A DNA stretch of 64,000 nt, from contig JAQBOZ010000020.1 in the NCBI GenBank assembly GCA_028287785.1, positions 66,738-130,737 of the forward strand, written 5' to 3'. Below, in pieces: positions 5,296 to 57,123 of this stretch. Origin of the DNA: Chlorobiota bacterium (GTDB taxonomy: Bacteria > Bacteroidota > Ignavibacteria > OLB7). Both the position numbers and the translations under genes were made by a program. Numbering within the stretch: the first letter of the stretch is position 1; every line of letters begins with the position of its first letter. The notes under the pieces are model-generated. The model did not search any database. It had not been told where the DNA came from and saw only the letters and a list, made by a program, of their open reading frames with translations.

Positions 5296-7899
5296 CTATT
5301 CCGCTCGCCTCAGCCGGATCACCGGATGCCGCGATGACTCGCCACCGATGCTGATGATCTCCTCCGGCGCAACCCGCGCCAGACGCCGCGAGGCAAGCTG
5401 CGCCCGATCGAACTCCACGCGATATTCCCCCGCCGCCACGCCGGTGATCAGCATCGTCCCGTCGGCGAACACCTCGCCATCGTACAACGCGCTGCCGGAA
5501 ACCGCCGCCAGTTGCACCCGAAGCCCGTTCAGATGCCCCCCCGCGGTTTCCCCCGCGACCGAATCAGCGGCCACGAGACACCGACCGGCAACATCGCCCC
5601 CCTCCACATAGGGCACATCCACCGCCACCGCCGCGCCGGGGGAGGAGAAGACGCCATAGCGGAGATGGCTGGGAAAAAGTCCCTCCGGCGCGTAATCCCA
5701 TCGGTCCACATCCAGCACCCAGACCATGTTCGGCGTCAGCAGAGGGAACTCCCCTTCCTCCGCGGTAAGCTCGGTGTTCCCCTGGCGGAGCCGCGCGTGG
5801 GGCGCCGGCAGATCCTCCTCGCCATCGTCGCGAACGCCGTTGCCGTTCCGATCCCTGAACGCCCGTACAACAACCGCCGAACGCCCCAGCGCATAATCGG
5901 GCGAGAGGAGAACGCCGTTGCCCGTGAAGGCCACGCTCCCCTGGGCGAACATCGTGCTGGTGGTGGCCGCCGTGCCGGCCTGATGATCCGCGAAGGCGAA
6001 TATCCGCGCGGGAGCAAAGTTCAGCTCAAGCTGCGCGGTGATTGCCCCTCGCGACCATTGAAGATTGGGAACGGAATACCCGACGCTGATCCCCATGAAC
6101 CCGGTCAGGCGGAGATATCCCGTCATATCGAGCAGCGGAAGCGACCGGGTGCGATAATCATATGTGCCGCCGATGCTGACCAGCGTCCCCCGCAACGGCG
6201 TCGCAATCAGTCGGAACACGCTCTGAACGCCGCCGCTCCGCCCCGCGCTGTCGATTTCGCCACCGCCGCCGCCGCCAACCGCGCGCGCGAATGTCGTGGA
6301 GAGGAACGCGGTCACCCCCGCCAGATAGCCGGAGATCTGCGGAGTGGCCGTCACGAAATATCCGTTTCCCCGATGCTCCACCCGCCCGGCGCCGCCAATC
6401 GACACCTGCCCAAGCGGAATATTGGCGGAGACCGTGGAGATAAAGGAGCGGTCACGCAGTGAAAGGGAATCGACCGACAGCCGGAACGATCTGTTCCCCG
6501 GCGTCACCGAGGATATCTCGCCGGAAAAGAGGCGGGAAAGAGGCCGGTAGCGCAGCCCCAGCGTGCTCGATTCCCCCATCCATATCGTGGCAAATGTGCT
6601 GGCCGAAACGCTGTCGGCGGTGATGGCGCCATATGCCGAGGGACGCAGCAGGCCGTCCACGCCAACGGTCAGGCGCGACAGCAACCCGAAATCGACGCGC
6701 CCCTCGCCGCCGATCCTCGATCCGGCGGCGAGCCGCTCGCTCCCGCCACGCACGGTATAATCCAGCTCCCCGGAGGGAATGACATGCCCATCAACCTGCA
6801 CCCGTCGCTCCTCCGTGAGGATCTCCCCGTACGGCCCCACAAACCTGAGCAGCCGTTCGATTGTTCCATATCCCACCGGGACCGTGAAAGAATAATATCC
6901 CAGGCTGTCGGCCCTGGTCACATCGGCCAGATGCGTTCCATCGTATAATTCCACAGTCCATCCCGGACGCGTCTGCCCCTGGATTTCATGTTCCATAAAG
7001 CCGCCGCGGGGAATGATCGGGACATTGGAGATCTCGGCGGCATACATCTGCGTCCCCGCCACAGGAATTCTTCCGATCGTGACTTTTCTCAGCGGCGAAT
7101 ATTCCGGCGCGATAAAACGCCATGTCCAGGAATTGAGCGCAACCAGAGGCGTTTGAGCGCCGAACGCCCCGCGACGCATTATCGCCGAGGTATTGATTTC
7201 AGCCTCACCGAACAGCAGTTCGCCGCCAATTCCCACGGAGGCATTGGAGAGATTATTTCTGGAATTCAGATTATTCGATATGGTCCAGTCGATCATCGGC
7301 GCGCCGATCAATGAGCGATTCACGGATATTTCCGGAACCGGATCGCCCGGCGATGTCTTGTCCAGCAGCAGCGATGCGTAACGCTGGTGATTCCGGCTCC
7401 ACTGCACAACCGGCAGCCGTTCATCCTGGGCAATCAGCAGCGTGAGCTTCGATATCCGGAAATTCGCCTGGATTCCGAGAACCCGAAAGAACAGCGACTG
7501 TTCGATATACAACTCGCCGCCAACCAGGCGGATTTGAGCCGCGGGAAACGACACGGTATCCCTTCCACGTGTGGCGGTATTCGAGCGACGCGAAAATTCA
7601 AAATGCTGATCGGACGGGAACGATCCCTCAAGGGTCGAATTATCGGAGGAAATTCCGGCGGGAATGCGGAGAAAATCGCAAAGCGAGAGATAGGGGAGAA
7701 ACAGCGTATCGCCGGAGAACTGAGCAACAAAATCATGACGGGCAATGCCGGCCACCTCGGCCTGCGCCACCCCTTCCTCCAGCGGATCGGGTGGGATGGG
7801 ATCGGCGCCACTGTCAGGGGTTTTTCCCGTTCTGTCGCCGGCCATCGATATATTCGGAACCAGAACCAGCAGGAGCAGAATAAGTGATAGTATGTTCAT
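5296..7899 (-). CDS. Putative fimbrial usher-like outer-membrane protein of the chaperone-usher operon
   Basis: 867 aa with an N-terminal signal peptide (MNILSLILLLLVLVPNISMA). Start ATG overlaps the upstream pilin stop as ATGA, suggesting translational coupling. Size (about 830-880 aa) and position after pilin-chaperone-pilin fit an usher. No usher motif was verified directly. Confidence 0.45.
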   Translation of the reverse strand: MNILSLILLLLVLVPNISMAGDRTGKTPDSGADPIPPDPLEEGVAQAEVAGIARHDFVAQFSGDTLFLPYLSLCDFLRIPAGISSDNSTLEGSFPSDQHFEFSRRSNTATRGRDTVSFPAAQIRLVGGELYIEQSLFFRVLGIQANFRISKLTLLIAQDERLPVVQWSRNHQRYASLLLDKTSPGDPVPEISVNRSLIGAPMIDWTISNNLNSRNNLSNASVGIGGELLFGEAEINTSAIMRRGAFGAQTPLVALNSWTWRFIAPEYSPLRKVTIGRIPVAGTQMYAAEISNVPIIPRGGFMEHEIQGQTRPGWTVELYDGTHLADVTRADSLGYYSFTVPVGYGTIERLLRFVGPYGEILTEERRVQVDGHVIPSGELDYTVRGGSERLAAGSRIGGEGRVDFGLLSRLTVGVDGLLRPSAYGAITADSVSASTFATIWMGESSTLGLRYRPLSRLFSGEISSVTPGNRSFRLSVDSLSLRDRSFISTVSANIPLGQVSIGGAGRVEHRGNGYFVTATPQISGYLAGVTAFLSTTFARAVGGGGGGEIDSAGRSGGVQSVFRLIATPLRGTLVSIGGTYDYRTRSLPLLDMTGYLRLTGFMGISVGYSVPNLQWSRGAITAQLELNFAPARIFAFADHQAGTAATTSTMFAQGSVAFTGNGVLLSPDYALGRSAVVVRAFRDRNGNGVRDDGEEDLPAPHARLRQGNTELTAEEGEFPLLTPNMVWVLDVDRWDYAPEGLFPSHLRYGVFSSPGAAVAVDVPYVEGGDVAGRCLVAADSVAGETAGGHLNGLRVQLAAVSGSALYDGEVFADGTMLITGVAAGEYRVEFDRAQLASRRLARVAPEEIISIGGESSRHPVIRLRRAE

Positions 7900-8429
7900 C
7901 GATATTCCGCCATAATGGTCACCGATCCCGAATATGATCCCCGCTGCTGACGCGTGCCGCTGGCGATACTTCCGCCGACCCGTACATCGATGCTGCTCCT
8001 GCCGGAGAGGCTGGCGGGGAACTGCGTGTCCTGATATAATGTCCCGGTTGAAAATGTTGTCCAGGTGGTACCGCCATCCAGGCTGTAGGCGCAGTCGGAA
8101 TTGCTGATCGTGATGCCGATATCACGATCGGAACTATTGATGCTGGCGCCGCTCAGCGCGGCAAGATTGGTAATGGCGATGGTGATGCGAACATTGCTGG
8201 CGGTATCCCCCGTAATCGTGAAACGGGCGGCCTGGCTGCTGGAATACGCAACAACCAGCTCACTCGAACGGGAAAATGTGCCGAACGTCAGGCCGGCGAC
8301 ACCGGTCATGGAAATGGCGGTCTGCCCATTCCCTGATGATGCTCCGGCAACGATTATAAAGAGCACCATCGCCGTTCGCAGGAAAAATCCCATGCGATGC
8401 GGACGCGATATACCCGGAACACGCGCCAT
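7896..8429 (-). CDS. Spore-coat-protein-U (SCPU) domain pilin-like subunit
   Basis: Signal peptide (likely start M at 8393: MGFFLRTAMVLFIIVAGASSG). C-terminus ...QQRGSYSGSVTIMAEYR matches the SCPU/Csu-pilin C-terminal strand pattern (Y.G..T.TV..Y). Confidence 0.6.
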   Translation of the reverse strand: MARVPGISRPHRMGFFLRTAMVLFIIVAGASSGNGQTAISMTGVAGLTFGTFSRSSELVVAYSSSQAARFTITGDTASNVRITIAITNLAALSGASINSSDRDIGITISNSDCAYSLDGGTTWTTFSTGTLYQDTQFPASLSGRSSIDVRVGGSIASGTRQQRGSYSGSVTIMAEYR

Positions 8430-8441
8430 GACGTTGTAAAG

Positions 8442-9305
8442 TTAGTCCCCCGGCGATAACGCAATTCCGCTCGCGGAGACAGTGACGAAATATTTTCTTC
8501 TCATCGTGGGCGCCGTAATCACGGCATCATTCGCCGCGCCTTTTTTTACCGTCGCCGATTCGATTTCGATGGTATAGGAGCCCAAGGCCAGTTTCGGAAA
8601 CCGCAATGATTTTCTCAGCGAAAATTCGGTTGTAAACTGGTCGGTTGCCGTGGCAATATCCTTCCCTTCAACATTTCGCACGTGTGCGGACAATGTTCCC
8701 CGATATGCCGAATTTCCGGAACGTCGCAGATCGATCAATGCAAGCGTCCCCTTCGCATCTCCCCGCATGGCAACGGCATCGATGGATATTCCCGTTTCGG
8801 TATTCCCCTTCCGAAAAATAATCGGGATATCAAGCTCTATTTTCATCGTAAGCCGCGTCTCTATCTGAGCCGCGCTATCCCCCAGCACGGAGGATTCCAC
8901 TGAAACAGGGGAGCTTCCGAACACCGCGCGGCCCCAGTATTCCCCATCCGGTATGGAATCCGGCGGCAGAATCAGGACGCGCACCGAACGCGATTCGCCG
9001 GGGGCGAGCGTAAATCGATGCGGAAAAATCTTTACCCAGTTTCTGCACGATTTTCTCAATTCATCGCTGCTCGCATCAGACCGAAGCGTGACACGGCCCA
9101 GGGAATCGCTCTGCAACAGCCTGAATCCCAGGTCGGTCGTCACCTCGACCCGCTCCGATGTCGGATTGGTGAGATTTACCTCCTGTGACCGCTCGCGAAG
9201 GCTGAGAATTACGCGGGTCGGAGAAAGCTCCACTTGCGCCGATACCGCGTGCGCGGCTACGACGCCAAGGAAAATGACCAGCGCAATTCTGGAGATGATA
9301 GTCAT
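8442..9305 (-). CDS. Periplasmic pilus-assembly chaperone (PapD-like)
   Basis: Signal peptide MTIISRIALVIFLGVVAAHAVSAQ. N-terminal domain pattern VELSPTRVILSL...EVNLTN...RFTLAPGESRSVRVLILPP is reminiscent of PapD-like chaperones. Lies between two SCPU pilin genes. Confidence 0.5.
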   Translation of the reverse strand: MTIISRIALVIFLGVVAAHAVSAQVELSPTRVILSLRERSQEVNLTNPTSERVEVTTDLGFRLLQSDSLGRVTLRSDASSDELRKSCRNWVKIFPHRFTLAPGESRSVRVLILPPDSIPDGEYWGRAVFGSSPVSVESSVLGDSAAQIETRLTMKIELDIPIIFRKGNTETGISIDAVAMRGDAKGTLALIDLRRSGNSAYRGTLSAHVRNVEGKDIATATDQFTTEFSLRKSLRFPKLALGSYTIEIESATVKKGAANDAVITAPTMRRKYFVTVSASGIALSPGD

Positions 9306-9461: not shown

Positions 9462-10013
9462 TTAATTCGAATAGGCGGCGCTCACGGAAAACGATCCGCT
9501 ATACACACCACGCTGCTGCGATGCGGCGGGAGTTACCGAGCCACCAATCCAGAGATATGCCTGACCAAGACCGTCGGCATCGGTTCCATTGCCGTCCGCG
9601 TCCGCGCTGAGCCCAACCGTCACGGTTCCGCTCGATGCGTCGGCCTGCGTTGCATTGGCCTGGACGTTGGCGGTGCTGTTCGCGATCATGTTGGCGCGGT
9701 CCAGCGTTACGCTCAGCGTGGCCGATCCATCGCCGGAGGTTGTGTGCAGCGTTGCTGAGGAAGGGACAGTGACGACGACGTTATCCGACTCATCGCCGCT
9801 GAAATTGAATGCGCCGGCGCCGCCGGCGCTCTCAACAACAGCATTTGCCTGTCCCTTGGTTACGGTCCCGAATGCAAGAGCGGCGGTTGCCGTGCCGACG
9901 ATCGGCGTGGTAACGGTTGCGGAGCTGGAAACGCTGGTCTGTGCGACGGCGTTCAGCCCGGTGGAAAGTGCACATGCGGCGATTGCGCTCACGAAAAGCT
10001 TGCTGAATCTCAT
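9462..10013 (-). CDS. Spore-coat-protein-U (SCPU) domain pilin-like major subunit
   Basis: ATG at 10013 (MRFSKLFVSAIAACALSTGLNAVAQ signal peptide) with GGAG about 9 nt upstream. C-terminus ...QQRGVYSGSFSVSAAYSN is paralogous to 7896..8429. The track ORF extends further, to 10148. Confidence 0.6.
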   Translation of the reverse strand: MRFSKLFVSAIAACALSTGLNAVAQTSVSSSATVTTPIVGTATAALAFGTVTKGQANAVVESAGGAGAFNFSGDESDNVVVTVPSSATLHTTSGDGSATLSVTLDRANMIANSTANVQANATQADASSGTVTVGLSADADGNGTDADGLGQAYLWIGGSVTPAASQQRGVYSGSFSVSAAYSN

Positions 10014-10260
10014 CGTAGAAACTCCAGAAAAGATATGTGTGGGTTGTTCTTCCGGGGAGCTGACCATCTCCATCGGATTGCCCGCGATGCCTGTTTGGAC
10101 CATCATCGTAGGCACCACAAATATACATGGGCACCACACCCTCCGCAAGAGGTTTTATGCTCTGAATGCAAAATATCTTTCGCCGATTATTCTTTTAACC
10201 GAATTCCTGAAATATTCAAGGAATAATACCCGCGTAACAATTGACCATTATTATCGGTTA
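10014..10260 (-). promoter_or_regulatory. AT-rich leader and promoter region upstream of the pilus operon
   Basis: Markedly AT-rich stretch (aaatatctttcgccgattattcttttaaccgaattcctgaaatattcaaggaataata) in otherwise GC-rich DNA, directly upstream of the first pilin gene. No specific -35/-10 elements were assigned. Confidence 0.3.
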
Positions 10261-10956: not shown

Positions 10957-11226
10957 TCAGACCGATGCGGGCTGTTTCGGCTTCCTGCCGCTCCAGAAGA
11001 GCCATCCTGCCAGCACCACGAAGACCGCCACCGCCGGGCCGATATATCCCAGCAGCCCCGGATGAAAATCGTTCTTCCATTCCTTCGTGGTGGTGCCGAA
11101 CAGGGGATCAACAACGTCAACCTGCACCTGCTCGACATTGTAGATATGAGCGCCGGTTGTCCACCAGTAGACCAGCAGCCCCAGGGCCACCAGCAGGCAA
11201 ATGATTGCGAGGATTCTTTTGTTCAT
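10957..11226 (-). CDS. Small membrane protein (two predicted TM helices), last gene of the Rieske/cytochrome-porin operon
   Basis: MNKRILAIICLLVALGLLVYWW... and ...GPAVAVFVVLAGWLFW hydrophobic segments. Only 4 bp downstream of the YceI gene on the same strand. Confidence 0.45.
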   Translation of the reverse strand: MNKRILAIICLLVALGLLVYWWTTGAHIYNVEQVQVDVVDPLFGTTTKEWKNDFHPGLLGYIGPAVAVFVVLAGWLFWSGRKPKQPASV

Positions 11227-11230
11227 GATA

Positions 11231-11884
11231 TTACAGGCCTGTTGATCCGAAGAGTTGCGCGGTTACCTGAATCTTTTCGCCAACCTTGCTCCCGATGGTC
11301 CCCTGTGCCCCCGATACGTTGTAATCGGCAAGCGCCACGTCGAATGTGGCGGAGATCATCACCAGATCGCCCGGCGCGCGCTTGCGCGTTTCGGCCGATT
11401 CATCCAGATAGGTGATCTTGAAGGGAACAGAGAGCGACTTCGTGACGCCGTGCATCGTGAACTTCCCGGTCGCCGTGCCGGTAGCGGAGTTCCCCGTCAC
11501 CTTTATGCCACTCACCGATCCGATCGTAAAGGAGAGCAGCGGATATTTCGCTCCATCCAGCCATTGCGCGCTCTGGATATGCGAGTCGCGCATGGCGTTG
11601 CCGCTCTTCATCGTGCTGACCGTTGCCCCGATCGTTCCGCGAATCGTGCCGAGATTCCTCGGATCGAGCGTGAGCGTGCCGCTTACCCCTTCCGCCGTTC
11701 CCTTCATGTTCTCCAGCGGCGCGTTGCTGACCCAGACGAACTGGTTCTTGGAGACCCGGTCGCTCAGCTTCACGGTTTTCACCCCGGAGGCGTTCACCGT
11801 CAGGCCCTGCGCCCCGGCAACGGAACCGCCGCATATTCCCATGGCAATCGTCAGCGCGATTGCCGACATCCTTGAAATCTTCAT
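11231..11884 (-). CDS. YceI-family periplasmic (polyisoprenoid-binding) protein
   Basis: Signal peptide. YceI-like core (MRDSHIQSAQWLDGAKYPLLSFTIGSV...KFTMHGVTKSLSVPFKIT). Confidence 0.8.
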   Translation of the reverse strand: MKISRMSAIALTIAMGICGGSVAGAQGLTVNASGVKTVKLSDRVSKNQFVWVSNAPLENMKGTAEGVSGTLTLDPRNLGTIRGTIGATVSTMKSGNAMRDSHIQSAQWLDGAKYPLLSFTIGSVSGIKVTGNSATGTATGKFTMHGVTKSLSVPFKITYLDESAETRKRAPGDLVMISATFDVALADYNVSGAQGTIGSKVGEKIQVTAQLFGSTGL

Positions 11885-11980
11885 CGGACCTTCCTCTATG
11901 TATTATACTTGATTGATTGCTGACGTCGTCTTCCGCTCGCCCATCACCATGCCGGTTGATGATGCACGGGCGGCACGCGA

Positions 11981-13192
11981 TCAGTAGAAGAGATGTACCT
12001 GGAGCGCGAACTGTCCCGAGGAGCTCACCGCGGTCTTCATATACCGGTATTCCGGACGAATCTCGAAATAGGGAAACACAAAGAGCTGGCTCCCGATCAC
12101 GTAGGAGTTTGCCTCGACCAACGGGGATTCCGCGGTTTCCCTGGCGGTTCCCCGTTCGTAGCGACCTTCCAGGTTCATCCACGGCGTCAACTGATAGGTT
12201 CCGTAGATCATCGTGCTTCCCAGCTTGTAGCCGGTGCCGGTGTGGGTGAACATCCCCTCACCGTAGATCGCCGCCCTGTCCGACAGACCCACCCCCGCGA
12301 ACGCGTTGATCATGGTGAACTCCCCGTTGGCGAGAAGCGAACCACCGACCATGCCGTTAAGCCCCTCATCGAGAAGCTGCGGCCAGTAGATCAGACGCCC
12401 CGAGAACGATGGCTTGGCGGAATCGACGCCGATATCGAAATTCTGGCCGAGGTTCCTGGCGGAGTAGACGCCGGCGTTCACCGTGAAATCGCGGGTTCCC
12501 TCGTAGGTCAGCTCGGCCCCCCACTCATTGTAGTTGGGGGGGAGAATCGGCAGCGTGCCGAACTCCGTGGTTTCCTGCCGGACGAACATCGTATGATCAT
12601 CCTGGCGGATGCCGACGCTCGGCTGGATATGCCCCACGCGGATCGATGGAAGCGTGATTCCCGGCTGGTACTGAACGGCAAGATCGAACGAGGATTGCCC
12701 CAGATAGGCCGGAACCGCCAGCTTGTCCCCAAGATATTTCTGATCGGCGAAATTGAAGCTCCCGTACATGGTCAGCTCATCGAACGGCTGAATGGCGATC
12801 GCCGGAGAAAGCTGCATCACCTTGATCTCCGACGATCCATCCTGCGCCCCGAAATTCGCGTACTGAACCCGCGCATCCAGCCCGACCGTGACAAGGCCAT
12901 TCCAGAAACTGTTGCTCTCCGCGGCAAAAAGGGAATCCAGACCGATCATCGATGGCTGAATGGCGCCGATCTCATTCATCGTGCTCCATCCCAGCTCGTT
13001 CCTGATGCCGCTTCCCTGCGGGTTGAAGTGGCACGCGGAACAGCGCGTGCCGGTCAGCAGCGAGAAACGGGGAAGCGCGCGGAGATGGACCGGAGCGGCC
13101 AACACCATGATAAACAGCAGGAGAAGCCCCGGACGGCCGCCACGTGGGCCGATATTCCGCGAGAGTTTGAGCGACATCATCGTTGTTTCCAT
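11981..13192 (-). CDS. Outer-membrane beta-barrel protein with an N-terminal CXXCH haem-binding motif; candidate Cyc2-like fused cytochrome-porin
   Basis: Signal peptide. CSACH motif within about 15 residues of the predicted mature N-terminus (TGTRCSACHFNPQG). Amphipathic beta-strand-rich body ending in aromatic ...QVHLFY. Size of 403 aa fits the smaller Cyc2 clade. The Cyc2 assignment is inference only. Confidence 0.5.
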   Translation of the reverse strand: METTMMSLKLSRNIGPRGGRPGLLLLFIMVLAAPVHLRALPRFSLLTGTRCSACHFNPQGSGIRNELGWSTMNEIGAIQPSMIGLDSLFAAESNSFWNGLVTVGLDARVQYANFGAQDGSSEIKVMQLSPAIAIQPFDELTMYGSFNFADQKYLGDKLAVPAYLGQSSFDLAVQYQPGITLPSIRVGHIQPSVGIRQDDHTMFVRQETTEFGTLPILPPNYNEWGAELTYEGTRDFTVNAGVYSARNLGQNFDIGVDSAKPSFSGRLIYWPQLLDEGLNGMVGGSLLANGEFTMINAFAGVGLSDRAAIYGEGMFTHTGTGYKLGSTMIYGTYQLTPWMNLEGRYERGTARETAESPLVEANSYVIGSQLFVFPYFEIRPEYRYMKTAVSSSGQFALQVHLFY

Positions 13193-13310
13193 GCTTGTTT
13201 CGGATTCGTTTCACGGATCTGCCGTATCGCGGGACGGCGAGCGGACCATTCCGTTACGAGCCGCCGGATGCAGTCCCCGCCCCTTCCGGGACATCCCGCC
13301 CGGGGCAGTC

Positions 13311-13793
13311 TCACCGGAATTTTATGGTCAGCATCTTCGTGGTATCGTCGAACGTGGAAGTGTACTGTCCCAGGGGAGAGCTGGCCGGCCCCTGCTTCAC
13401 CGCGCCGGTGATATCGAACTTCGAGCCGTGGCACGGGCAGGTCATGATGCCGCTGGAGCTTGGTGCCCCCACCTGGCAGTTATCGTGCGTGCATTGCATC
13501 GAGAGCACAAGATACGTCGTCGCCGTTTTCCGAACCACCAGCACGTTCTGCCCGTCGGTTCCCTGGTCCCCCACCACCACAGCCATGTTATCGGCGGTGA
13601 GCGAGGAGACATCGGCTGTAATCTGGGCGGGACCGTTCGGCGCGGTTGGCGAGCTTGAATCGGAGCATCCCTGAAGAACGGGGGCAATCGTCCCGATGAC
13701 CGTCAGCCCCACCATGGCGCTGGCACACTGCGAGAAGAACGAGCGCCTGCCCTCGCTTTCGATGATGGGGAGCTCTTTATTGTTTGAACACAT
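13311..13793 (-). CDS. Rieske [2Fe-2S] domain protein with TAT signal and probable lipobox
   Basis: Twin-arginine motif GRRSFF; probable lipobox VLQGC (Q at -2 is non-canonical). Rieske boxes CTHDNC and CPCHGS. First gene of the minus-strand operon. Confidence 0.8.
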   Translation of the reverse strand: MCSNNKELPIIESEGRRSFFSQCASAMVGLTVIGTIAPVLQGCSDSSSPTAPNGPAQITADVSSLTADNMAVVVGDQGTDGQNVLVVRKTATTYLVLSMQCTHDNCQVGAPSSSGIMTCPCHGSKFDITGAVKQGPASSPLGQYTSTFDDTTKMLTIKFR

Positions 13794-17647: not shown

Positions 17648-17935
17648 AGTTTCCGCGCTGTGTTCGGGAGCATGTCCCCAGGAGGTTCGATGGATGCGAT
17701 ATGACGGAAGGAGCAGATCCCGGGGTCGGGACGCTCCCGCTTTTTACATCAGAGCAAGTTAAGTTTTCGATGCCACGGGGAAAAGCGGCAGCAGCACATA
17801 ATAGATAACATTGTGAAAGTATGGCGCGAAGAATGCGCCTGGAATCAGCCCGTCCGGGGACAATCGGCTATTTTTGGTATCGGTAGCATCCTGTTTCCGG
17901 AATGGCAGGGATCACATCAGTCAATCGTCAATATC

Positions 17936-19174
17936 ATGAACCAGCGGAAACGTATCGTCATCCTGGGCACAGGGTTCGCCGCCATCAGCCTCGTCAAGAA
18001 GATCGACCTCACCGCTTACGAGGTCATGATCGTCAGCCCGCGGAATCATTTTCTCTTTACTCCACTGCTGCCGAGCACGACCGTGGGAACCGTGGAATTC
18101 AGAAGCATCATCGAGCCGGTTCGGAAGACCCGCAAGGGGATCGAGTACATGCAGGGAAGCTGCCGGTCGGTTGATACGGAGCGGCGGACCATCACCTGCG
18201 AGGGGGTCGATTCCGGGGTCGAGTTCACGATGGAATATCATCATCTGGTGATCGCGGTGGGGGCATGGAACAACACCTTCAACGTCCCCGGCGTCCGGGA
18301 GCATGCCCGGTTCCTGAAGGAGGTGACCGATGCCAGGGTGATCCGCGAGCAGGTGATTTCCTGTCTGGAACGGGCGGATATCCCCGGCATCAGCATGGAG
18401 GAGCGGAACAGGCTGCTCCATTTCGTGGTGGTCGGGGGCGGGCCAACGGGGATCGAGTTCGCGGCGGAACTGCATGATCTGATCGAGGAGGATCTGGGGA
18501 GAAGCTATCCGCATCTGAAGGGGGAGGTGAAGATCAGCCTGTTCGAGGCGATGAACACCATTCTCAACTCGTTCGATGGCAATCTTCGCCGGTACACCGC
18601 GGAGCACTTCAAGCGGCAGGGAATCGAGCTTCGAGTGGGAACGCCGGTGCAGGAGGTGCTGGATGGCGGCCTGAAGCTGAAGAACGGCGAGATGATCCCG
18701 GCCGGGCTGATCGTCTGGTCCACCGGCTACGGGCCGACCGGCCTGGCGCAGTCGCTGCCGTTCGACAAGGACAGGTCGGGACGGATACTGGTGGATGAAT
18801 GCCTGCGCGTCCCGGCGCACCCGGAGATCTACGCGCTTGGCGATTGCTCGAACATCGCGGGAAACGCGGTCCCGCAGACGGCGCAGCTTGCCATGCAGCA
18901 GGGAAAATATCTGGCGAAGGCGCTCAACGCCATCCACGACGGCGAGAGCCCGAAGCCGTTCAAATTCAACAACCTGGGGATGCTGGCCTATGTCGGCGAA
19001 AGCAAGGCCCTTGCCGATATCCCGAAGGCAAACATCCGATGGCGCGGGCTGATCACCTATATCTTCTGGCGCTCCGCTTATTTCACCCGGCTGATCGGCT
19101 TCAAGAACAAGGTGCTGGTGTTGTTCGACTGGATAAAGACGGCGGTGTTCGGACGGGATCTGAGCAAGTTCTGA
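17936..19174 (+). CDS. ndh: Type II NADH:quinone oxidoreductase (NDH-2)
   Basis: Two Rossmann dinucleotide-binding motifs (IVILGTGFAA; VVVGGGPTGIEFAAEL). NDH-2 family length. ATG verified at 17936; the track ORF begins at 17813. Confidence 0.85.
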   Translation: MNQRKRIVILGTGFAAISLVKKIDLTAYEVMIVSPRNHFLFTPLLPSTTVGTVEFRSIIEPVRKTRKGIEYMQGSCRSVDTERRTITCEGVDSGVEFTMEYHHLVIAVGAWNNTFNVPGVREHARFLKEVTDARVIREQVISCLERADIPGISMEERNRLLHFVVVGGGPTGIEFAAELHDLIEEDLGRSYPHLKGEVKISLFEAMNTILNSFDGNLRRYTAEHFKRQGIELRVGTPVQEVLDGGLKLKNGEMIPAGLIVWSTGYGPTGLAQSLPFDKDRSGRILVDECLRVPAHPEIYALGDCSNIAGNAVPQTAQLAMQQGKYLAKALNAIHDGESPKPFKFNNLGMLAYVGESKALADIPKANIRWRGLITYIFWRSAYFTRLIGFKNKVLVLFDWIKTAVFGRDLSKF

Positions 19175-19765: not shown

Positions 19766-21667
19766 CTACTTCACAACCGAAAATCCTCTCGTCATGACCC
19801 TTCCTTCCACCTGAAGCTGATAGAAATATGCGCCGGCCGGCAGCGTCACGGTGTTGAGCGCTTCTCTGTGCGAACCCGCCGCTCTCTCTCCATCGGTAGC
19901 CAGAATTTCCCGCCCAAGCGCATCCAACAGGCGCAGACGAACGTGGCACTGCCTGGGAAGAGAATATCCTATTGTCGTAAAACCAGTGGCGGGGTTGGGA
20001 TAATTTCCGTCGAGCGTTGCTTCATTGGCAGATGAGGCCTCGGGAACATCGGCCGCCACGCTCTCCAGAACAAGATGCACAACGGTCAACGGAGCAATGG
20101 TATAGGTGAAGTTGGTTACCCCGGCGTCCGATGTCATTCCCGTAACCGCCGGGATCTCCCTGATATCCATCCCACTACCATCAAAAGCAAATGCCCGCCC
20201 GCTCGTGAATTTCCGGTCGGACCTGACCGAAAAGCTCCCGATAATCGGGTCGGTCATGCTTTTGTTGATGGCGACGATATGGAATTTCGATCGATCGGAT
20301 GAGCTGGCCGAGGCATGGACGGAGCTGTTCTGATTGTCCGAGGAAACGGCGCGCGCGTTGATATCGCCGAATGCCGAGAAGTGCCCGTCATAATTCCGGT
20401 AGATCCTGTAGGCCGTCGAAATATAATCCCCCACGGTCCCCCAGTAATTGGACATATAGACGCCATATTTTCCGAAGATTCCCAGGACATCCGCAACGGC
20501 TATCCCGCCCGAGATATCGCTGTCGCCACCGTAATTATATTCCGTAAATGCCAGCTTTGTTCCGGGATAATATCTGGCGATCGATGCGCGCACGGCCGGG
20601 ATCAGCGCAACGGGGCTGAAGTACTGGCCTATCCAGCTATCCTCCCTGAACGTGGAATCCCAGAGCGACCGCGGCGCCTGCATCCGCGCGCGCTGGACGC
20701 CCGGATCGGCCCCGTTCTTGTCGAAAACGATACGGACCAAGCTGCTGTCGTTTCCCTTGCCGCGCGCCTCGGGGTACCAGTGCAGATCCAGCACATCGAG
20801 CAGCCGCATGTTATAGGCCGCCTCCGCCTCCTTCATTTTCGCCAGATATGCGCCGAGGAAATTCCCGTAGCTGCTGTAGGCGCTCCAGTCCGGGGCATCC
20901 TGGCAGTTGAGAAATTCCGCGTAGCCATACGCCACGGGCCCGAACATCTCGGCACCGGCGTCCACTCCCTTGACCGCGCGCGCCAGAGCAACTCCCTTGT
21001 CGATCACCTCCTGAACCCGCGTCTTCGCCGGATGTATTCTGGGATGAGTTGTCGGCCAGAGCGCCGGCTCATTATCGATCGCATAGCCCCGAACGCCCCC
21101 GACGTTCGATTTGCCGAACATGTTCACCAGAGCATTCACCTCCTCATCGGCATAGACGATATTGTCGCCGGTATCCGGCGCAAGCAGAAACGGACTCCCC
21201 TTGGCCGGCTTCACCTCCGCCCATCGCACCGATGGGGCGGTCTGCTCCGGCGATACCACACCGGATTTATCCTTTGCCACATAGCCGGCCGCCGGCAACG
21301 TAATCAGCGAATAACTGGACGTGCTTATCGACTCCTGATGAAAGAGCCTGGGAACGATACCCGGCTTATTCTCAAGGGAGTCGGCAAGCGTATAGGTCAT
21401 GTAATTATCGCTCTGATTATTGAAATCGGTGCCGGCGTGCGATGCGTTGTTCTCCCAGTTGTACCCGGTCCACCTGTTCCCCCCCGCCCTTCGCGCGGCG
21501 ATATTCGCGGCGGGGTCATCCCCCTGGGCATTGGAACCGTAGACATACGGGCTGATGCGGAAGGTATCGAGGCCGGCATCGATCGAAAACCGGACATGGG
21601 TTGGCGACTGCGCCAGCGCGGCCGCGGGGAGCAGCATAACGGCGAGAAGTTGTAGAAGGGGCTTCAT
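19766..21667 (-). CDS. Glycoside hydrolase family 44 (endoglucanase/xyloglucanase-type) with T9SS C-terminal sorting domain
   Basis: Signal peptide. GH44 signatures (RWTGYNWENNASHAG; YAIDNEPALW). C-terminal about 80 aa match the Por-secretion tail (YPNPATGFTTIGYSLP...LRLLDALGREI...LPAGAYFYQLQVEGR). Confidence 0.85.
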   Translation of the reverse strand: MKPLLQLLAVMLLPAAALAQSPTHVRFSIDAGLDTFRISPYVYGSNAQGDDPAANIAARRAGGNRWTGYNWENNASHAGTDFNNQSDNYMTYTLADSLENKPGIVPRLFHQESISTSSYSLITLPAAGYVAKDKSGVVSPEQTAPSVRWAEVKPAKGSPFLLAPDTGDNIVYADEEVNALVNMFGKSNVGGVRGYAIDNEPALWPTTHPRIHPAKTRVQEVIDKGVALARAVKGVDAGAEMFGPVAYGYAEFLNCQDAPDWSAYSSYGNFLGAYLAKMKEAEAAYNMRLLDVLDLHWYPEARGKGNDSSLVRIVFDKNGADPGVQRARMQAPRSLWDSTFREDSWIGQYFSPVALIPAVRASIARYYPGTKLAFTEYNYGGDSDISGGIAVADVLGIFGKYGVYMSNYWGTVGDYISTAYRIYRNYDGHFSAFGDINARAVSSDNQNSSVHASASSSDRSKFHIVAINKSMTDPIIGSFSVRSDRKFTSGRAFAFDGSGMDIREIPAVTGMTSDAGVTNFTYTIAPLTVVHLVLESVAADVPEASSANEATLDGNYPNPATGFTTIGYSLPRQCHVRLRLLDALGREILATDGERAAGSHREALNTVTLPAGAYFYQLQVEGRVMTRGFSVVK

Positions 21668-40570: not shown

Positions 40571-40826
40571 TATTCGATGTGCAGATTATGCCGCGATTAT
40601 GCTCCGACGGTAAAATACGGCCTGGCCGGAGCGATTCAATATTCGTCGGGACGATTCATGAATTGCCCCGCCCCCGGCGCAAAAAAAATCGTATCATCGG
40701 GAACCGAATTCCATCAACGCGCTCCAACGCGGTTGATTCGATCTCATCCCCATCGCAATTACCATTGGATCGTCGCGCGCTGACTATCCCCTTCCCTTCA
40801 TGTTCCGCTATCCGGAGATATTGTTC

Positions 40827-42401
40827 ATGCGAACTGGCAACGCCGTTACATGCCGAAAAACGCTCGGGAGCATTGCGAGCTGGCTTATGCCGATGCTCCT
40901 TCTGCTCGCCATCACCACCGGCGCCCGAGCCCAGGGAGGCGGGTTCCTCGTTATCACCCCCGCCGGAGGCGAGAACTTCGTGGTCGATTCCACGGTACAG
41001 ATCCGGTGGCTGGCGCAGGGAGTTACCGGCCAGTTGAACATCGACTACTCGGTCGATAGCGGCGCGGTCTGGAAACGGATCGACAGCGTAACCGCAAGGA
41101 CGGGGCTGGACTCGATGTCGTGGGTTGTCCCCAATGATACCTCCAGGCGCGCGCTGGTCCGGATCACCACGGCGGATGGCACCAAGACGGCCCGCTCGCG
41201 CAGGGTCTTCTCCATCACGCTGAAGCCGCTCCCGGCGCTTACGGTGATCTACCCGAACGGCGGCGAGCTGTTCGGCGCCGATTCCACCGTCAAGATCCGC
41301 TGGAACGCCACCAACATCACCGGCGATCTTCTGGTCGATTATTCGATCGACAGCGGCAGGACATGGAAACCGATCAAGAAGGTGGCGGCGCGCAGCGGCC
41401 CCGATACGCTGGCCTGGGTGATCCCGCATGATACCACCAGCCAGGCGTTCGTCCGCGTGATGGCGGTCGACAGCTCCATCAGGGACGCATCCAACCGGAC
41501 GTTCACGATCCGCGCATCGGTAAATCCGAAGATCCAGCTGCTCTTCCCCAACGGCGGCGAAGCATTCCAGGCGGATTCCACGACAATGATTCGCTGGCAG
41601 GGGCAGGACCTGACCGGCGCACTCAACATCGAATTTTCGACCGATGGCGGAACAAGCTGGAAGCTCATCGGCAGCAAACAGCCACGGACGGGAAATGACT
41701 CGCTCCCCTGGAAGGTGCCGAATGATTCCACGACCAAAGCGCTGGTCAGGGTCAGCAGCGGCCCGCTCCGCGATACCTCGGACGCGGTCTTCACCATCAA
41801 CCCGCGCCCGCCCATCTCCCTGAAACTCCTCTATCCGAATGGCGGCGAGAAGTTCGGCACCGATTCGACGATCGCCATCGTCTGGAACTCGAAGAACAAC
41901 AAGGGAATGCTGGCGATGAACTTCTCATCCGACGGCGGTGCCACATGGACACTGATCGACAGCGTGATGCCGAAGCCGGGGAACGACTCGATGTTCTGGA
42001 CCACCCCGAAAACCCTCAGCAAGAACGCCCGGCTGGCGATCACCACGGCCGATGGGCTGGTGAGCGATACCACCGATGCCCCCTTCTCGATCGTTTCGAA
42101 CAACGTGGGGCCAGGCGATGGCGTCGATTATCAGTCGGGCGGTTCCGGGTCGCTTGCGGCGTATCCGAACCCGACGGCCGCCGAAACCGACCTGCGCTGG
42201 GAACAGCGGAGCGCCGGCGAGGCAAGCGTGGGCATCTACGACCGGAGCGGCCGACTTCTCATGACCGCCGCCGCCGGACATCGCGAGCCCGGAGAGCAGC
42301 ATTATCGTCTGTCGACGACGGGGCTGCCGGCCGGCATCTATCTGGTCGAAATCCACTCTGGCATGAATCGTGCGAATTGCGTGGTCACGCTGGTGCGATA
42401 A
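40827..42401 (+). CDS. Secreted protein with five tandem about 90-aa repeats and T9SS C-terminal sorting domain
   Basis: Signal peptide. Five repeats: (I/L)xxPNGGExF..DST..IRW......G.L.IDYS.D.G.TWK.I....AR.G.D...W.VP.D.....LVR. C-terminal Por tail (AYPNPTAAETDL...LPAGIYLVEIHSG). Alternative ATG at 40800. Confidence 0.7.
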   Translation: MRTGNAVTCRKTLGSIASWLMPMLLLLAITTGARAQGGGFLVITPAGGENFVVDSTVQIRWLAQGVTGQLNIDYSVDSGAVWKRIDSVTARTGLDSMSWVVPNDTSRRALVRITTADGTKTARSRRVFSITLKPLPALTVIYPNGGELFGADSTVKIRWNATNITGDLLVDYSIDSGRTWKPIKKVAARSGPDTLAWVIPHDTTSQAFVRVMAVDSSIRDASNRTFTIRASVNPKIQLLFPNGGEAFQADSTTMIRWQGQDLTGALNIEFSTDGGTSWKLIGSKQPRTGNDSLPWKVPNDSTTKALVRVSSGPLRDTSDAVFTINPRPPISLKLLYPNGGEKFGTDSTIAIVWNSKNNKGMLAMNFSSDGGATWTLIDSVMPKPGNDSMFWTTPKTLSKNARLAITTADGLVSDTTDAPFSIVSNNVGPGDGVDYQSGGSGSLAAYPNPTAAETDLRWEQRSAGEASVGIYDRSGRLLMTAAAGHREPGEQHYRLSTTGLPAGIYLVEIHSGMNRANCVVTLVR

Positions 42402-55313: not shown

Positions 55314-55337
55314 CGCTATATTTTCGTATATTTGTGC

Positions 55338-56279
55338 ATGGAAAAGGAAAACTACACACCGCGCACCCTTCAGGAAGCAATCGTCCACTACTCCAACCCG
55401 GATAATGCACTCGCATTTATGATCCGTCTTCGGTGGCCGGACGGTATCACGTGCCCCCGTTGCGGATCGTGCGAGCATAGCTTTTTGACGACGCGCCGCG
55501 TGTGGAAGTGCAAGGGATGTAAGAAGCAGTTCTCCGTTAAGGTCGGCACCATCTTCGAGGATTCTCCGCTCGGTCTGAACACGTGGCTTGCCGCCGTGTG
55601 GCTCATCACGAACGCCAAGAACGGCGTAAGCTCATGCGAGATTGCGCGGGCACTTGGCATCACACAAAAGAGCGCGTGGTTCGTCTTGCATCGTATCCGC
55701 ATCGCGATGGAAACGGGCACCATTGAGAAGCTGAAGGGCCAGGTTGAAGCCGATGAAACGTACATCGGCGGCAAGTACGGGAACATGCACAGGATCAAGC
55801 GCGCTCAAAAGGAGCAGGGACGCGGCGCTGTCGGGAAGGTTATCGTGATGGGGTTCTTGGAGCGTGACGGCGCGGTACGGGCAAAGGTCGTGAAGAGCAT
55901 CAAGAAGACCATCTTGCACGCGGAAGTCCGGCTGAACGTCGAAGCTGGTACGGAGTTGCTTACCGACAACCTTGCGAGCTACGAGGGCTTGGAGCCGGAA
56001 TACACGCACGAGAGCGTCAACCACGCCGCTGAACAGTATGTACGGGGCCATGTGCATACCAACGGCATAGAGAACTTCTGGAGCTTGCTCAAGCGGACGC
56101 TGAAGGGCACGTATGCGCAGGTTGAGTCCCATCACCTTCAGGCATATCTTGACGAACAGATATTGCGGTTCAATCTTCGCAAGGGAACGGATAAGAGCCG
56201 GTTCTTGCGCGTGGTTGGTGGAGTGTCGGGAAAGAGACTAACTTACAAGCAGTTGATTGGTCGGGGTGGTAACATCTAG
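55338..56279 (+). CDS. IS1595-family transposase (N-terminal zinc-ribbon plus ISXO2-like DDE domain)
   Basis: CPRCGS...CKGCKKQFSVKVGTIFEDS zinc ribbon. DETYIGGK and downstream DDE-domain residues. ATG at 55338; the track ORF begins at a TTG at 55332. Confidence 0.85.
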   Translation: MEKENYTPRTLQEAIVHYSNPDNALAFMIRLRWPDGITCPRCGSCEHSFLTTRRVWKCKGCKKQFSVKVGTIFEDSPLGLNTWLAAVWLITNAKNGVSSCEIARALGITQKSAWFVLHRIRIAMETGTIEKLKGQVEADETYIGGKYGNMHRIKRAQKEQGRGAVGKVIVMGFLERDGAVRAKVVKSIKKTILHAEVRLNVEAGTELLTDNLASYEGLEPEYTHESVNHAAEQYVRGHVHTNGIENFWSLLKRTLKGTYAQVESHHLQAYLDEQILRFNLRKGTDKSRFLRVVGGVSGKRLTYKQLIGRGGNI

Positions 56280-56290
56280 GAGGTACGGCA

Positions 56291-56464
56291 ATGGATAAGG
56301 AAGGTGATGATAAGAATCATCAATCAGAGGAATACACTCGCTTTGAACAGGCGATGCGAACGATTCTAGGGGCACCGAAGAAGAAGGTTGACGCGAAGAT
56401 GGAGGAATTAAAGAAGAAGCGCAAAGGGATAAATAAAAAAGGCAGTACAGATAAGGATAGATAA
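56291..56464 (+). CDS. Small basic hypothetical protein (57 aa) inside the IS element
   Basis: ATG 12 nt after the transposase stop. Lys-rich. Not in the supplied ORF track; read directly from the sequence. Confidence 0.3.
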   Translation: MDKEGDDKNHQSEEYTRFEQAMRTILGAPKKKVDAKMEELKKKRKGINKKGSTDKDR

Positions 56465-56499
56465 AGGGTTCATATAGAGCATTCGCTCAATATGCGCAC

Positions 56500-57123
56500 T
56501 TATTTCTTTGTGTTCAATGCACGAATTCGCTCTGTCAGTTTATATACCCCAGTTGATGGATTCCCGCCAATGGTGCTATGTCTCTCGTGCATCTTGTCTA
56601 ATTCAGAGGCCCTTGTAACTGCAAGCTCATAGTTTGGCTGAATCTGATCAAGTGGAATGAGCTTTACATAACCCGGCAAGTGTGTTTTGCAATGGGATTG
56701 AACCACTCCTCTATCAATATAAGCTCGGTGATCGGCAAAATGCAGGTATACCCAAAGCTCAAAGCAAGGATTCGATATTGCTAGCTGTATGTTGTGCGCA
56801 TTAGCCTGCTGACATGCATCTGCAATATTAGGATGCTCATCGACATCGAAGCAGCACCATACTTCATCATACTTTAGATTATTATCCTTTTCTCTTCTTG
56901 CTTCCTGTTCCGCTCTTTTCTTCTCAGCTACAGCTGCTTCAACTAGGGCTTTTGGTACCATACCACATTCGCCAATCTTGATCTCAACGAGCCGGTTACG
57001 TTCCATCCTGCAAAAAGCAATGAAATACTCACGTTCGGTAACAACTCCTTCGCAGAGAATTAGCAGTCTTTTTTGAACATCCCGAAATGGTCTTCGGCGA
57101 GCAAGGCTAGCTTTTCGCTTCAC
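56500..57123 (-). CDS. RloB-like (AbiLii-like) protein
   Basis: RloB-family N-terminus ...RLLILCEGVVTEREYF, central DEVWCCFDVDEH, and LAISNPCFELWVYLHF. GTG start at 57123 overlaps the upstream ATPase gene by 17 bp. Confidence 0.75.
   Translation of the reverse strand: MKRKASLARRRPFRDVQKRLLILCEGVVTEREYFIAFCRMERNRLVEIKIGECGMVPKALVEAAVAEKKRAEQEARREKDNNLKYDEVWCCFDVDEHPNIADACQQANAHNIQLAISNPCFELWVYLHFADHRAYIDRGVVQSHCKTHLPGYVKLIPLDQIQPNYELAVTRASELDKMHERHSTIGGNPSTGVYKLTERIRALNTKK

Follow-up and report, generated by a model that had tools for sequence, protein, structure and literature searches.

Four co-directional genes on the minus strand, delimited from the open reading frames and translations of the 64-kb window (the whole stretch of DNA analysed), form one module at positions 10957-13793 (Table 1). 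All four reading frames lie on the strand and at the positions where an earlier note on this DNA had placed them. This Kapabacteria genome holds a conserved four-gene module that combines a predicted Cyc2-related haem-porin with a putative exported Rieske lipoprotein, a YceI protein and a small membrane protein. The best protein match shows 93% identity to a 'Candidatus Kapaibacterium sp.' MAG protein, and T9SS C-terminal sorting domains in two window genes (19766-21667 and 40800-42401) agree with the earlier assignment to a T9SS-bearing lineage. Matches in a scan for sigma-70 promoters and terminators, which does not cover Bacteroidota promoters, were no more frequent than in shuffled sequence.

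Table 1 Genes and sequence features of the haem-porin–Rieske module.
Feature	Position	Strand	Basis
Putative Tat-signal Rieske [2Fe-2S] lipoprotein, 160 aa	13311..13793	-	PF00355 match and motifs
Cyc2-like fused monohaem cytochrome-porin (predicted), 403 aa	11981..13192	-	Signal peptide, short haem-binding segment, predicted 16-strand barrel
Conserved N-terminal haem segment ALPRFSLLTGTRCSACHFNPQGSGIRNELGW, residues 39-69 of the 403-aa protein	12986..13078	-	Translation and alignment
CSACH motif of the 403-aa protein	13028-13042	-	Inside the haem segment
Periplasmic YceI-like protein with signal peptide, 217 aa	11231..11884	-	PF04264 match
Small membrane protein with two hydrophobic helices, 89 aa	10957..11226	-	Sequence features; conserved loop

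The Rieske protein contains every motif that had earlier been read from its sequence: GRRSFF, with the arginine pair at residues 16-17; VLQGC, with the lipobox cysteine at residue 43; and the boxes CTHDNC and CPCHGS, which include the disulfide cysteines. The first two motifs predict Tat export and lipidation, with a non-canonical glutamine at position -2 of the lipobox, and the Rieske domain itself is recognised by Pfam PF00355 at 48.6 bits (cut-off 20.3). The arginine pair, the lipobox cysteine and the CxH..CxxH ligands are invariant across seven Rieske partners. Across 63 partners, the RR motif (RR.[F/L]) occurs in 62, a lipobox-like cysteine in 59 and the CxH...CxxH ligands in all 63, while an acidic CE.DE stretch follows the lipid-anchor cysteine in many. 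A bc1/b6f-style disulfide cysteine pair, a feature associated with higher-potential Rieske clusters, is present in 42/63. The haem of Cyc2PV-1 has a potential of 208 mV (PMC8406198), and the disulfide pair is compatible with electron acceptance from a haem near +200 mV. The closest solved relatives of the Rieske protein are b6f/bc1 Rieske subunits together with small soluble or PetC3-type Rieske proteins. Assignment as a bc1/b6f Rieske subunit (PetA/PetC equivalog) was rejected at NCBIfam scores of 46-49 bits against cut-offs of 97-250, and no cytochrome b gene is found in the operon or among the window ORFs scanned. An arsenite-oxidase-type small subunit was also rejected (24 bits against a cut-off of 96; no large subunit nearby).

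The 403-aa protein carries CSACH and ends in ...QVHLFY, as first described. The two cysteines of the motif (residues 51-55) are the sole cysteines of the protein. The motif does follow a signal peptide, but not by the 15 or so residues of mature chain proposed before: counted from the likely signal-peptidase site, between VHLRA and LPRF, it begins about 11-12 residues in. Conservation of the haem motif had been suggested as a check, and CXXCH is kept in every full-length homologue among the matches listed (108 word-search matches; 150 representatives listed). Its constant context reads [AS][LI]P[RQE][FYM]..L..G..C..CH.N..GGG.R..LGW, and 81 sequences show no variation at P41, G48, C51, C54, H55, G60, R64 or G68. 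The homologue entries that lack CXXCH are N-terminally short, and in the one short entry checked (P0099) the motif is encoded in frame shortly before a start that had been mis-called. We therefore reject the existence of homologues truly devoid of the haem motif, the entry checked being a gene-calling artefact. These features suggest that the 403-aa protein binds haem covalently.

The 403-aa protein is predicted to fold into a 16-strand outer-membrane beta-barrel whose best structural match is OprP, and this porin-like model fits the barrel that the ...HLFY terminus had led the earlier note to propose. Pfam and NCBIfam scans of the protein returned nothing useful. Its homologues, which might have proved to be ordinary porins, instead form an uncharacterised family in which the haem motif is always present; one of them has a precomputed porin-family match, PF07642. 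A search with a profile of this haem-barrel family yields 1,431 cluster representatives at an E cut-off of 1e-3, and 147 when the cut-off is 1e-30. The relatives stem from many different metagenome projects, and the members with source names belong to Kapabacteria and Ignavibacteria. All named examples are annotated 'hypothetical', some with mis-called starts that delete the haem motif.

Keffer et al. 2021 define Cyc2 by CXXCH, an AXPXFAR[Q/K][T/Y] motif upstream, PXL downstream, an OprO/OprP-like 16-strand porin and a length of at least 365 aa (PMC8406198). The 403-aa protein has a single CXXCH near the N-terminus after a hydrophobic leader (judged from sequence), a predicted C-terminal 16-strand porin of the OprO/OprP type and sufficient length. 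Upstream of the haem motif it reads ALPRFSLLT, which aligns with the canonical motif at A, P, F and T but has S-L-L in place of A-R-[Q/K]; FAR[Q/K] is absent from every haem-barrel family member among the matches listed. Downstream, it reads CSACH-FN-PQG and lacks PXL, and the family conserves N-P-x-G-G-G-x-R at this position. The P-x-F-x-x-x-T-x-x-x-C spacing nevertheless equals the canonical P-x-F-A-R-[QK]-[TY]-x-x-x-C spacing, and the spacing A-x-P-x-F...[T/Y]-x-x-x-C-x-x-C-H is common to the family and Cyc2.

We compared the 403-aa protein with 88 motif-defined canonical Cyc2 proteins, recovered from GTDB genomes by scanning for a degenerate DNA pattern. Full-length hhalign returns 98.6% probability (E 1.1e-15). 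The alternating residue pattern of beta-barrels can inflate profile similarity, and for the barrel alone, which gives 94% probability (E 1.4e-7) in profile-profile comparison, the reversed sequence used as the sole control gives 0.1%. An HMM built from the 88 proteins scores the 403-aa protein at 28 bits. The published Cyc2 screen, blastp at 1e-5 followed by a motif filter (PMC8406198), would exclude the protein because its identity to canonical Cyc2 is about 14%, its best BLASTP score is 36 bits (against a tiny database, a score that would fail at database scale) and the motif filter is failed. The earlier claim of a Cyc2-like fusion thus stands as remote full-length homology, but not as strict Cyc2 membership. 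Since FAR[Q/K] and PXL are missing, we describe the protein as 'Cyc2-like' and not as 'a Cyc2', and Cyc2 function cannot simply be transferred to it. In sequence terms, we read it as a distant, previously unrecognised Cyc2 relative and a divergent member of the Cyc2 superfamily.

Co-occurrence of the Rieske-porin pair, also put forward earlier as a check, is widespread: the Rieske gene lies on the same strand within 2.2 kb of the barrel gene in 38 of 40 non-redundant loci, despite varying gene order. No Rieske neighbour occurs at any of 36 canonical Cyc2 loci, in line with the earlier view that such a partner is non-canonical for Cyc2. A YceI gene is linked to the barrel in 24/40 loci. Homologues of the 89-aa protein, detected with a three-sequence HMM, are likewise present in 24/40, always on the strand of the barrel and at times directly after it. 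In one subclade, the genes around the pair encode a 5-haem lipoprotein and a monohaem cytochrome, together with a 13-haem cytochrome and a cytochrome b/NapC-NirT fusion. Since multihaem neighbours are confined to this one small subclade, we rejected them as a trait of the module at large. In several loci, the genes for barrel and YceI flank one for a lipoprotein that matches cytochrome-c families weakly and contains haem-type motifs. In literature on Cyc2 with Kapabacteria, Ignavibacteria, Rieske or YceI, we found no description of the module.

The YceI protein matches PF04264 at 83.4 bits (cut-off 23.7). Among solved structures it is closest to E. coli YceI (1y0g), with polyisoprenoid-binding proteins next, and this fold match predicts a polyisoprenoid/quinone-binding type. 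The gene for the 89-aa protein starts 4 bases past the YceI stop codon. Its product has no significant Pfam or NCBIfam family match and contains a conserved loop, DPLFG.TT..W...F..GLL.

An Ignavibacteria sister clade (for example, Melioribacter sp. OK-6-Me, P0374) has the same barrel and the same ALPRFAL..G..C..CH.NPTGG..RN N-terminus, and the haem-barrel family profile detects it with E values of about 1e-30 to 1e-38. Unlike in the window module, Rieske, YceI and small-protein genes were not called beside the sister-clade barrel in the four contexts examined; in three of these, a T9SS-secreted Temptin_C-domain protein with its own CXXCH stands next to it. The N-terminal haem segments bear a short resemblance to the neighbouring Temptin_C proteins. 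This resemblance stays at the level of a motif because a Pfam scan of the isolated haem segments (taken from the window protein and from three Ignavibacteria-clade and two canonical Cyc2 proteins) matched no family at E up to 10. The sister clade is present in cultured Melioribacter strains, which makes laboratory tests of the haem-barrel family possible.

Our interpretation starts from what is observed: four genes with conserved motifs and conserved linkage, a porin-like model and remote homology to Cyc2. We favour the reading that a divergent haem-porin of the Cyc2 superfamily and a dedicated Rieske redox partner probably form a short electron relay at the outer membrane, likely directed inward. 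A small soluble reductant, by analogy with Cyc2 most probably dissolved Fe(II), would enter the pore and reduce the haem. The porin haem would in turn reduce the Rieske cluster, and the lipid-tethered Rieske protein would hand the electron on toward the respiratory chain, replacing the c-cytochromes or cupredoxins that serve canonical Cyc2 as partners in the periplasm. YceI and the two-helix protein would be accessory parts that may connect the relay with the inner membrane or the menaquinone pool. An electron-transfer role of the module is likely; haem attachment, the haem-to-Rieske transfer, the substrate (perhaps Fe(II)) and the direction of flow are what we infer. Keffer et al. caution that distant homologues of Cyc2 could have functions of another kind (PMC8406198). 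Against this reading also stand the absent Cyc2 motifs, the low identity to Cyc2, the inflation of profile similarity to which beta-barrels are prone and, among the genes scanned in the 64-kb window, the lack of a terminal oxidase, a cytochrome-c maturation gene or an obvious acceptor for the Rieske protein. The spread over many metagenome projects would also not suggest specialist iron oxidisers.

The same parts could also carry electrons outward, which we regard as possible though on balance unlikely. Menaquinol, perhaps presented by YceI, would reduce the Rieske protein, then the porin haem and finally an acceptor outside the cell (for example, Fe(III) chelates, Mn, humic substances or oxygen species), making the module a cytochrome-b-independent extracellular reductase. 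Rieske proteins of bc1/b6f classically accept electrons from quinol, and transfer from menaquinol through the Rieske cluster to a haem near +200 mV would run downhill. The linkage of YceI in more than half of the loci and its polyisoprenoid-binding relatives also favour outward flow, as does the subclade with multihaem cytochromes and a fusion of the quinol-dehydrogenase type. In the sister clade, the T9SS-secreted and probably cell-surface CXXCH partners suit contact with external substrates, and cultured Melioribacter relatives are Fe(III) reducers. However, every biochemically tested Cyc2 is an Fe(II) oxidase or takes up electrons, and a single haem in a narrow 16-strand pore is expected to be accessible to dissolved species only (PMC8406198). 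In addition, no quinol-binding membrane subunit was identified, YceI is missing from 16/40 loci and quinone binding by YceI is putative.

A rather doubtful further idea is that the haem-porin and the iron-sulfur lipoprotein constitute a new class of trans-outer-membrane redox wire in Bacteroidota, with the Rieske protein either displayed on the cell surface or exchanging electrons with menaquinone held by YceI. Surface display is possible because many Rieske partners carry the CE.DE stretch and the sister-clade partners are T9SS-secreted. The menaquinone variant, if true, would provide a quinone-to-outside (or Fe(II)-to-quinone) path that dispenses with a cytochrome bc complex and multihaem cytochromes.

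We consider it quite improbable that the module has a non-respiratory role in the envelope, such as reductive iron acquisition, detoxification of Fe(II) or reactive oxygen, or redox sensing, with haem-Rieske transfer serving protection or uptake. The module has few genes, the window shows no oxidase or other respiratory complex linked to it, and its relatives come from the varied metagenome projects noted above. In E. coli, yceI is next to the gene for cytochrome b561, which is implicated in superoxide oxidation. Keffer et al. further allow that Cyc2 may have additional functions (PMC8406198). Yet in the loci examined the module has no regulator, TonB-dependent element or iron transporter as a linked neighbour, and the multihaem and quinol-dehydrogenase-type genes of the one subclade point to respiration. 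A last alternative, that the protein is an ordinary porin with unrelated neighbours and with a CXXCH that is fortuitous or does not bind haem, would fit the missing Pfam/NCBIfam matches and the single PF07642 homologue, but is effectively refuted by the conservation and linkage statistics and so highly improbable: CXXCH sits inside a 30-residue conserved block in every full-length homologue listed, the Rieske gene stays linked despite rearranged order, and the significant profile homology to Cyc2 includes the haem region.

Cyc2 is the main marker gene for finding iron oxidisers in genomes and metagenomes, and its known diversity has been set by a motif filter that the haem-barrel family fails. 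Surveys of iron cycling and extracellular electron transfer will miss the family because of that filter, the 'hypothetical' annotations and the mis-called starts. In the relay that we favour, the Rieske lipoprotein would be the first iron-sulfur protein, rather than a c-cytochrome or cupredoxin, to serve as the dedicated partner of a cytochrome-porin. The module suggests that electrons in Bacteroidota cross the outer membrane by a route not described before, and would broaden the known ways in which they make this crossing. Deeply diverged relatives in the sister classes of Chlorobi are also relevant to the recently claimed youth of extant Cyc2 diversity (PMC12442345).

Like Cyc2 (A. ferrooxidans Cyc2, Leptospirillum Cyt572 and Mariprofundus Cyc2PV-1), the 403-aa protein has a signal peptide with A-x-P-x-F...[T/Y]-x-x-x-CXXCH directly after it, a single haem motif, a length of about 400 aa and a predicted 16-strand barrel that best matches OprP. 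Unlike Cyc2, it has its own conserved NP.GGG.R..LGW block in addition to lacking FAR[Q/K] and PXL, its partner is a Rieske lipoprotein (38/40 related loci against 0/36 canonical Cyc2 loci), and the hosts of the Rieske-paired barrel named so far are Kapabacteria. The Rieske protein shares its fold and its CTH..C and C.CH boxes with cyanobacterial PetC3, a lipoprotein-type Rieske protein outside the b6f complex, whose structure (PDB 5cxm) ranks second among solved chains (E 1.1e-9). This likeness is one of fold and does not indicate orthology; unlike PetC3, the window Rieske gene adjoins the gene for a predicted outer-membrane haem-porin. In concept, the module resembles MtrCAB and PioAB/MtoAB, where an outer-membrane barrel and redox proteins, with lipoprotein partners, move electrons across the outer membrane. 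The barrels of those systems have 26 strands and enclose separate decahaem proteins (PMC8406198), whereas here a predicted 16-strand barrel carries its own single haem motif and is paired with an iron-sulfur partner.

The module comprises four minus-strand genes read in the same direction, with intergenic gaps of 118, 96 and 4 bases; an RF-1-domain gene lies upstream on the opposite strand. As the earlier note had proposed from the sequence, the Rieske protein contains GRRSFF, VLQGC, CTHDNC and CPCHGS, the 403-aa protein combines a CSACH near its mature N-terminus with an ...HLFY end, and a YceI gene and a small membrane protein gene complete the operon. The CSACH (residues 51–55) stands right behind the hydrophobic leader and holds both cysteines of the 403-aa protein. 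No Pfam or NCBIfam model matched this protein, whose closest database match is a 'Candidatus Kapaibacterium sp.' MAG protein (93% identity), and a family scan of the 89-aa membrane protein was likewise without a match.

Coordinates of the module genes, their surroundings and features of related loci (L, fetched genomic loci; other positions refer to the window)
Feature	Position	Strand	Remarks
Rieske protein, 160 aa	13311-13793	minus	PF00355, 48.6 bits against a cut-off of 20.3
Equivalent of acidic stretch in Rieske protein	13650-13665		
Haem-barrel, 403 aa	11981-13192	minus	CSACH; ...QVHLFY C-terminus
A-x-P-x-F onset, haem-barrel residues 39-41	13070-13078		
YceI protein, 217 aa	11231-11884	minus	PF04264, 83 bits
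Small membrane protein, 89 aa	10957-11226	minus	Two hydrophobic helices
867-aa protein	5296-7899	minus	
DUF4402 protein	7896-8429	minus	
PapD-like chaperone	8442-9305	minus	Weak match
DUF4402 protein	9462-10148	minus	
HdrD/TfrB-like membrane protein, 686 aa	15587-17647	minus	4Fe-4S and two CCG domains
NDH-2 type NADH dehydrogenase	17813-19174	plus	
Low-GC stretch	55332-58393		GC 0.46 against about 0.60 elsewhere
IS1595-family transposase	55332-56279		
AAA_21/AbiEii-like ATPase	57107-58393		
Haem-barrel homologue P0099	L213:2797-4014		
Multihaem gene set	L003:6906-13937		Extra redox genes: 5-haem lipoprotein, monohaem cytochrome, 13-haem cytochrome, cytochrome b fusion
Cytochrome-like lipoprotein	L001:9173-10213; L002:9449-10417; L213:4001-5245		Downstream of barrel
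Temptin_C/T9SS proteins, about 225-310 aa	L208:7312-7986; L209:7110-7799; L210:3298-4967		

A word-indexed search returned 108 homologues of the 403-aa protein, each unnamed or 'hypothetical'. When 1.84 billion representatives were searched exhaustively with a profile, 1,431 matched at E ≤1e-3, and 147 did so at E ≤1e-30. The haem motif is kept in every full-length homologue among the matches listed from both searches, always within the context [AS][LI]P[RQE][FYM]..L..G..C..CH.N..GGG.R..LGW, and P41, G48, C51, C54, H55, G60, R64 and G68 are invariant in an 81-sequence alignment. Judged from this conservation in sequence, the CXXCH of the family is not a chance occurrence. Entries without it are N-terminally short (for example P0087–P0089, P0092 and P0099). 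For P0099, the DNA upstream of the annotated start encodes AIPKFSLMTGTRCSACHFNPQGSG in frame, which indicates a mis-called start codon; the true start at this locus is probably a non-ATG codon upstream. In some family members, gene callers have set the start at the internal Met of ...MNE.G..., so that signal peptide and haem motif are lost, and members mis-started in this way escape automated haem-motif screens. The A-x-P-x-F onset coincides with the predicted signal-peptidase site in both the window family and canonical Cyc2 (L008–L127), so that the conserved haem region seems to include the mature N-terminus itself.

An AlphaFold2 model made with the family alignment (mean pLDDT 87.5, pTM 0.81) is porin-like, consistent with the beta-barrel claimed from the sequence: 16 long strands are predicted across residues 101–402, and the N-terminal segment is modelled with confidence (pLDDT 84–92 over residues 51–100). 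Cyc2 as defined by Keffer et al. 2021 (PMC8406198) has a signal peptide, a single CXXCH and a 16-strand porin in at least 365 aa, with AXPXFAR[Q/K][T/Y] upstream and PXL downstream of the CXXCH. Canonical loci came from a pattern scan of GTDB genomes for DNA that encodes P-x-F-A-R-[QK]-[TY]-(3-5 residues)-C-x-x-C-H, which yielded at least 120 loci. Hosts among the canonical matches listed include Sideroxydans, Gallionella, Zetaproteobacteria, Chlorobiaceae, Nitrospira, Ignavibacteriales and Bacteroidetes, and in all listed matches exactly three residues separate [TY] from C, although three to five were allowed. When ALPRFSLLTGTRCSACH of the window protein is set against canonical AIPAFARKYGxxCxxCH, A, P, F, T and G fall in register at the same spacing, with AR[Q/K] replaced and PXL absent. 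The window protein reaches at best 36 bits against canonical proteins by BLASTP and 28 bits against an HMM of 88 complete canonical proteins, while other family members score up to 39 bits. Full-length comparison of the two families with hhalign gave 98.6% probability (E 1.1e-15, 339 columns, about 14% identity), and 94% (E 1.4e-7) persisted after everything through the CXXCH histidine was cut; the control against a reversed canonical alignment gave 0.1%. The HMM and hhalign comparisons thus make the haem-barrel family a remote homologue of Cyc2. Full-length homology and the 16-strand model support the earlier suggestion of a Cyc2-like fusion; the two defining motifs of Cyc2 are missing. The strict canonical motif (PSFARQT...CSSCH) also occurs in Ignavibacteriales, Bacteroidetes and Chlorobiota MAGs (L067, L047, L069 and L015; GTDB), and the canonical and divergent kinds therefore share one phylum-level group.

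The Rieske gene adjoins the barrel gene, on either side, in all seven first-retrieved loci, which represent five homologues with 29–47% identity to the window protein. Linkage was surveyed across 80 metagenome loci using small HMMs built from the window operon, and counted in the 40 non-redundant loci in which the barrel gene is flanked by 2.2 kb or more on each side. A same-strand Rieske gene lies within 2.2 kb of the barrel in 38 of these 40, YceI and the small membrane protein are each found in 24, and the complete four-gene module in 18. Gene order differs by lineage (Rieske-barrel-YceI-small, barrel-small-YceI-Rieske or barrel-Rieske), and survival of the barrel-Rieske linkage through these rearrangements argues for functional coupling. 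Under the same flank requirement, Rieske, YceI and small-protein genes were each found near canonical Cyc2 in 0/36 loci, bearing out the earlier view that a Rieske partner is not canonical for Cyc2. By sequence, the haem-barrel family belongs to the Cyc2 superfamily as a deep branch that has diverged in its motifs, and its partner is of a new class.

All 63 complete partner Rieske proteins have the CxH...CxxH ligands; 62 of them have RR.[F/L], 59 a lipobox-like Cys and 42 a disulfide cysteine pair of the bc1/b6f style. Among solved structures, those closest to the window Rieske protein are the Rieske subunits of b6f and bc1 and small Rieske proteins of the PetC3 type. Its assignment as a bc-complex subunit was rejected because NCBIfam equivalog scores fall far under the cut-offs and no cytochrome b gene was identified in the operon or among the window ORFs scanned. 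An acidic stretch behind the lipobox Cys, as in CE.DE, is common in the partners of L128–L207 (Glu at +2 in 60%; Asp/Glu at +4 in 42% and at +5 in 35%). Acidic residues at this position resemble the Bacteroidota signal for surface export of lipoproteins, which raises the possibility that part of the Rieske partners sit on the outside of the cell; with CSDSSS at this position, the window protein is a weaker case.

Within the 64-kb window, no oxidase or cytochrome-maturation gene was found. The HdrD/TfrB-like gene and the NDH-2 gene next to it are respiratory genes near the module, without linkage to it in other loci. Just downstream of the module, the two DUF4402 proteins, PapD-like match and 867-aa protein form what looks like a chaperone/usher-type surface-fibre locus, which the other loci likewise did not show linked to the module. 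The low-GC stretch is probably a mobile or defence island.

Additional candidate partners occur in some of the related loci. In a multihaem subclade (L003, L180, L200 and L201), possibly from hot springs, the barrel-Rieske pair stands among four other redox genes, including a 735-aa protein in which cytochrome b is fused to a 6-haem NapC/NirT-type domain; this set is a candidate for a complete conduit that leads from the quinone pool to the outer membrane. Several Kapabacteria loci place a lipoprotein of about 320–415 aa between barrel and YceI. It matches cytochrome-c families (PSCyt1, Cytochrome_CBB3) weakly, has an unusual C-x4-CH and, in L001, an additional CXXCH, and is absent from the window operon. 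The Ignavibacteria sister clade, which includes cultured Melioribacter strains and among its members Melioribacter sp. OK-6-Me, has the same N-terminus and barrel as the window family. None of its four contexts examined has an adjoining Rieske gene, and three have one or two proteins with Temptin_C and T9SS sorting domains directly upstream of the barrel. The one translated, from L208, carries CANCHVNPSGGGVRN, similar to the barrel's own haem block, which suggests a secreted haem partner at the cell surface.

The gene set, the haem and cluster motifs, the porin-like model, the Cyc2 homology and the specific linkage together point to a two-centre relay at the outer membrane, in which electrons would pass from a haem in the pore to a [2Fe-2S] cluster on a tethered protein, the Rieske protein taking the role of a periplasmic cytochrome. 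All three biochemically tested Cyc2 proteins are Fe(II) oxidases (Keffer et al., PMC8406198), and by homology with these the most likely function would be electron uptake, with dissolved Fe(II) or another small reductant of this kind as the donor. Our confidence is fairly high for the architecture and electron-transfer role of the module, and low for the substrate and direction of flow. Outward flow from menaquinol is the main alternative; the frequent YceI gene with its polyisoprenoid-binding fold, the classical quinol-to-Rieske reaction, the quinol-dehydrogenase-type neighbours in one subclade and the secreted sister-clade partners would fit it, and we regard it as rather unlikely. A non-respiratory role at the cell envelope appears quite improbable. 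Reading the 403-aa protein as an ordinary porin is effectively refuted by the CXXCH of all full-length homologues listed and by the conserved Rieske linkage.

None of the papers searched connects Cyc2 to Kapabacteria, to a partner of the Rieske type or to YceI, and all database names encountered for the haem-barrel family are 'hypothetical protein'. The published blastp-plus-motif screen would not catch the family, which fails two defining motifs and so escapes Cyc2-based surveys of iron oxidation; it also touches arguments on the age and spread of Cyc2 (PMC12442345). The module further suggests that iron-sulfur proteins are able to act as partners of outer-membrane cytochrome-porins. Whereas canonical Cyc2 has both FAR[Q/K] and PXL, the window haem-barrel has neither, and the type of partner differs by clade: c-cytochromes or cupredoxins for canonical Cyc2, according to the literature, secreted CXXCH proteins in the Ignavibacteria clade, and a Rieske lipoprotein in the Kapabacteria clade.
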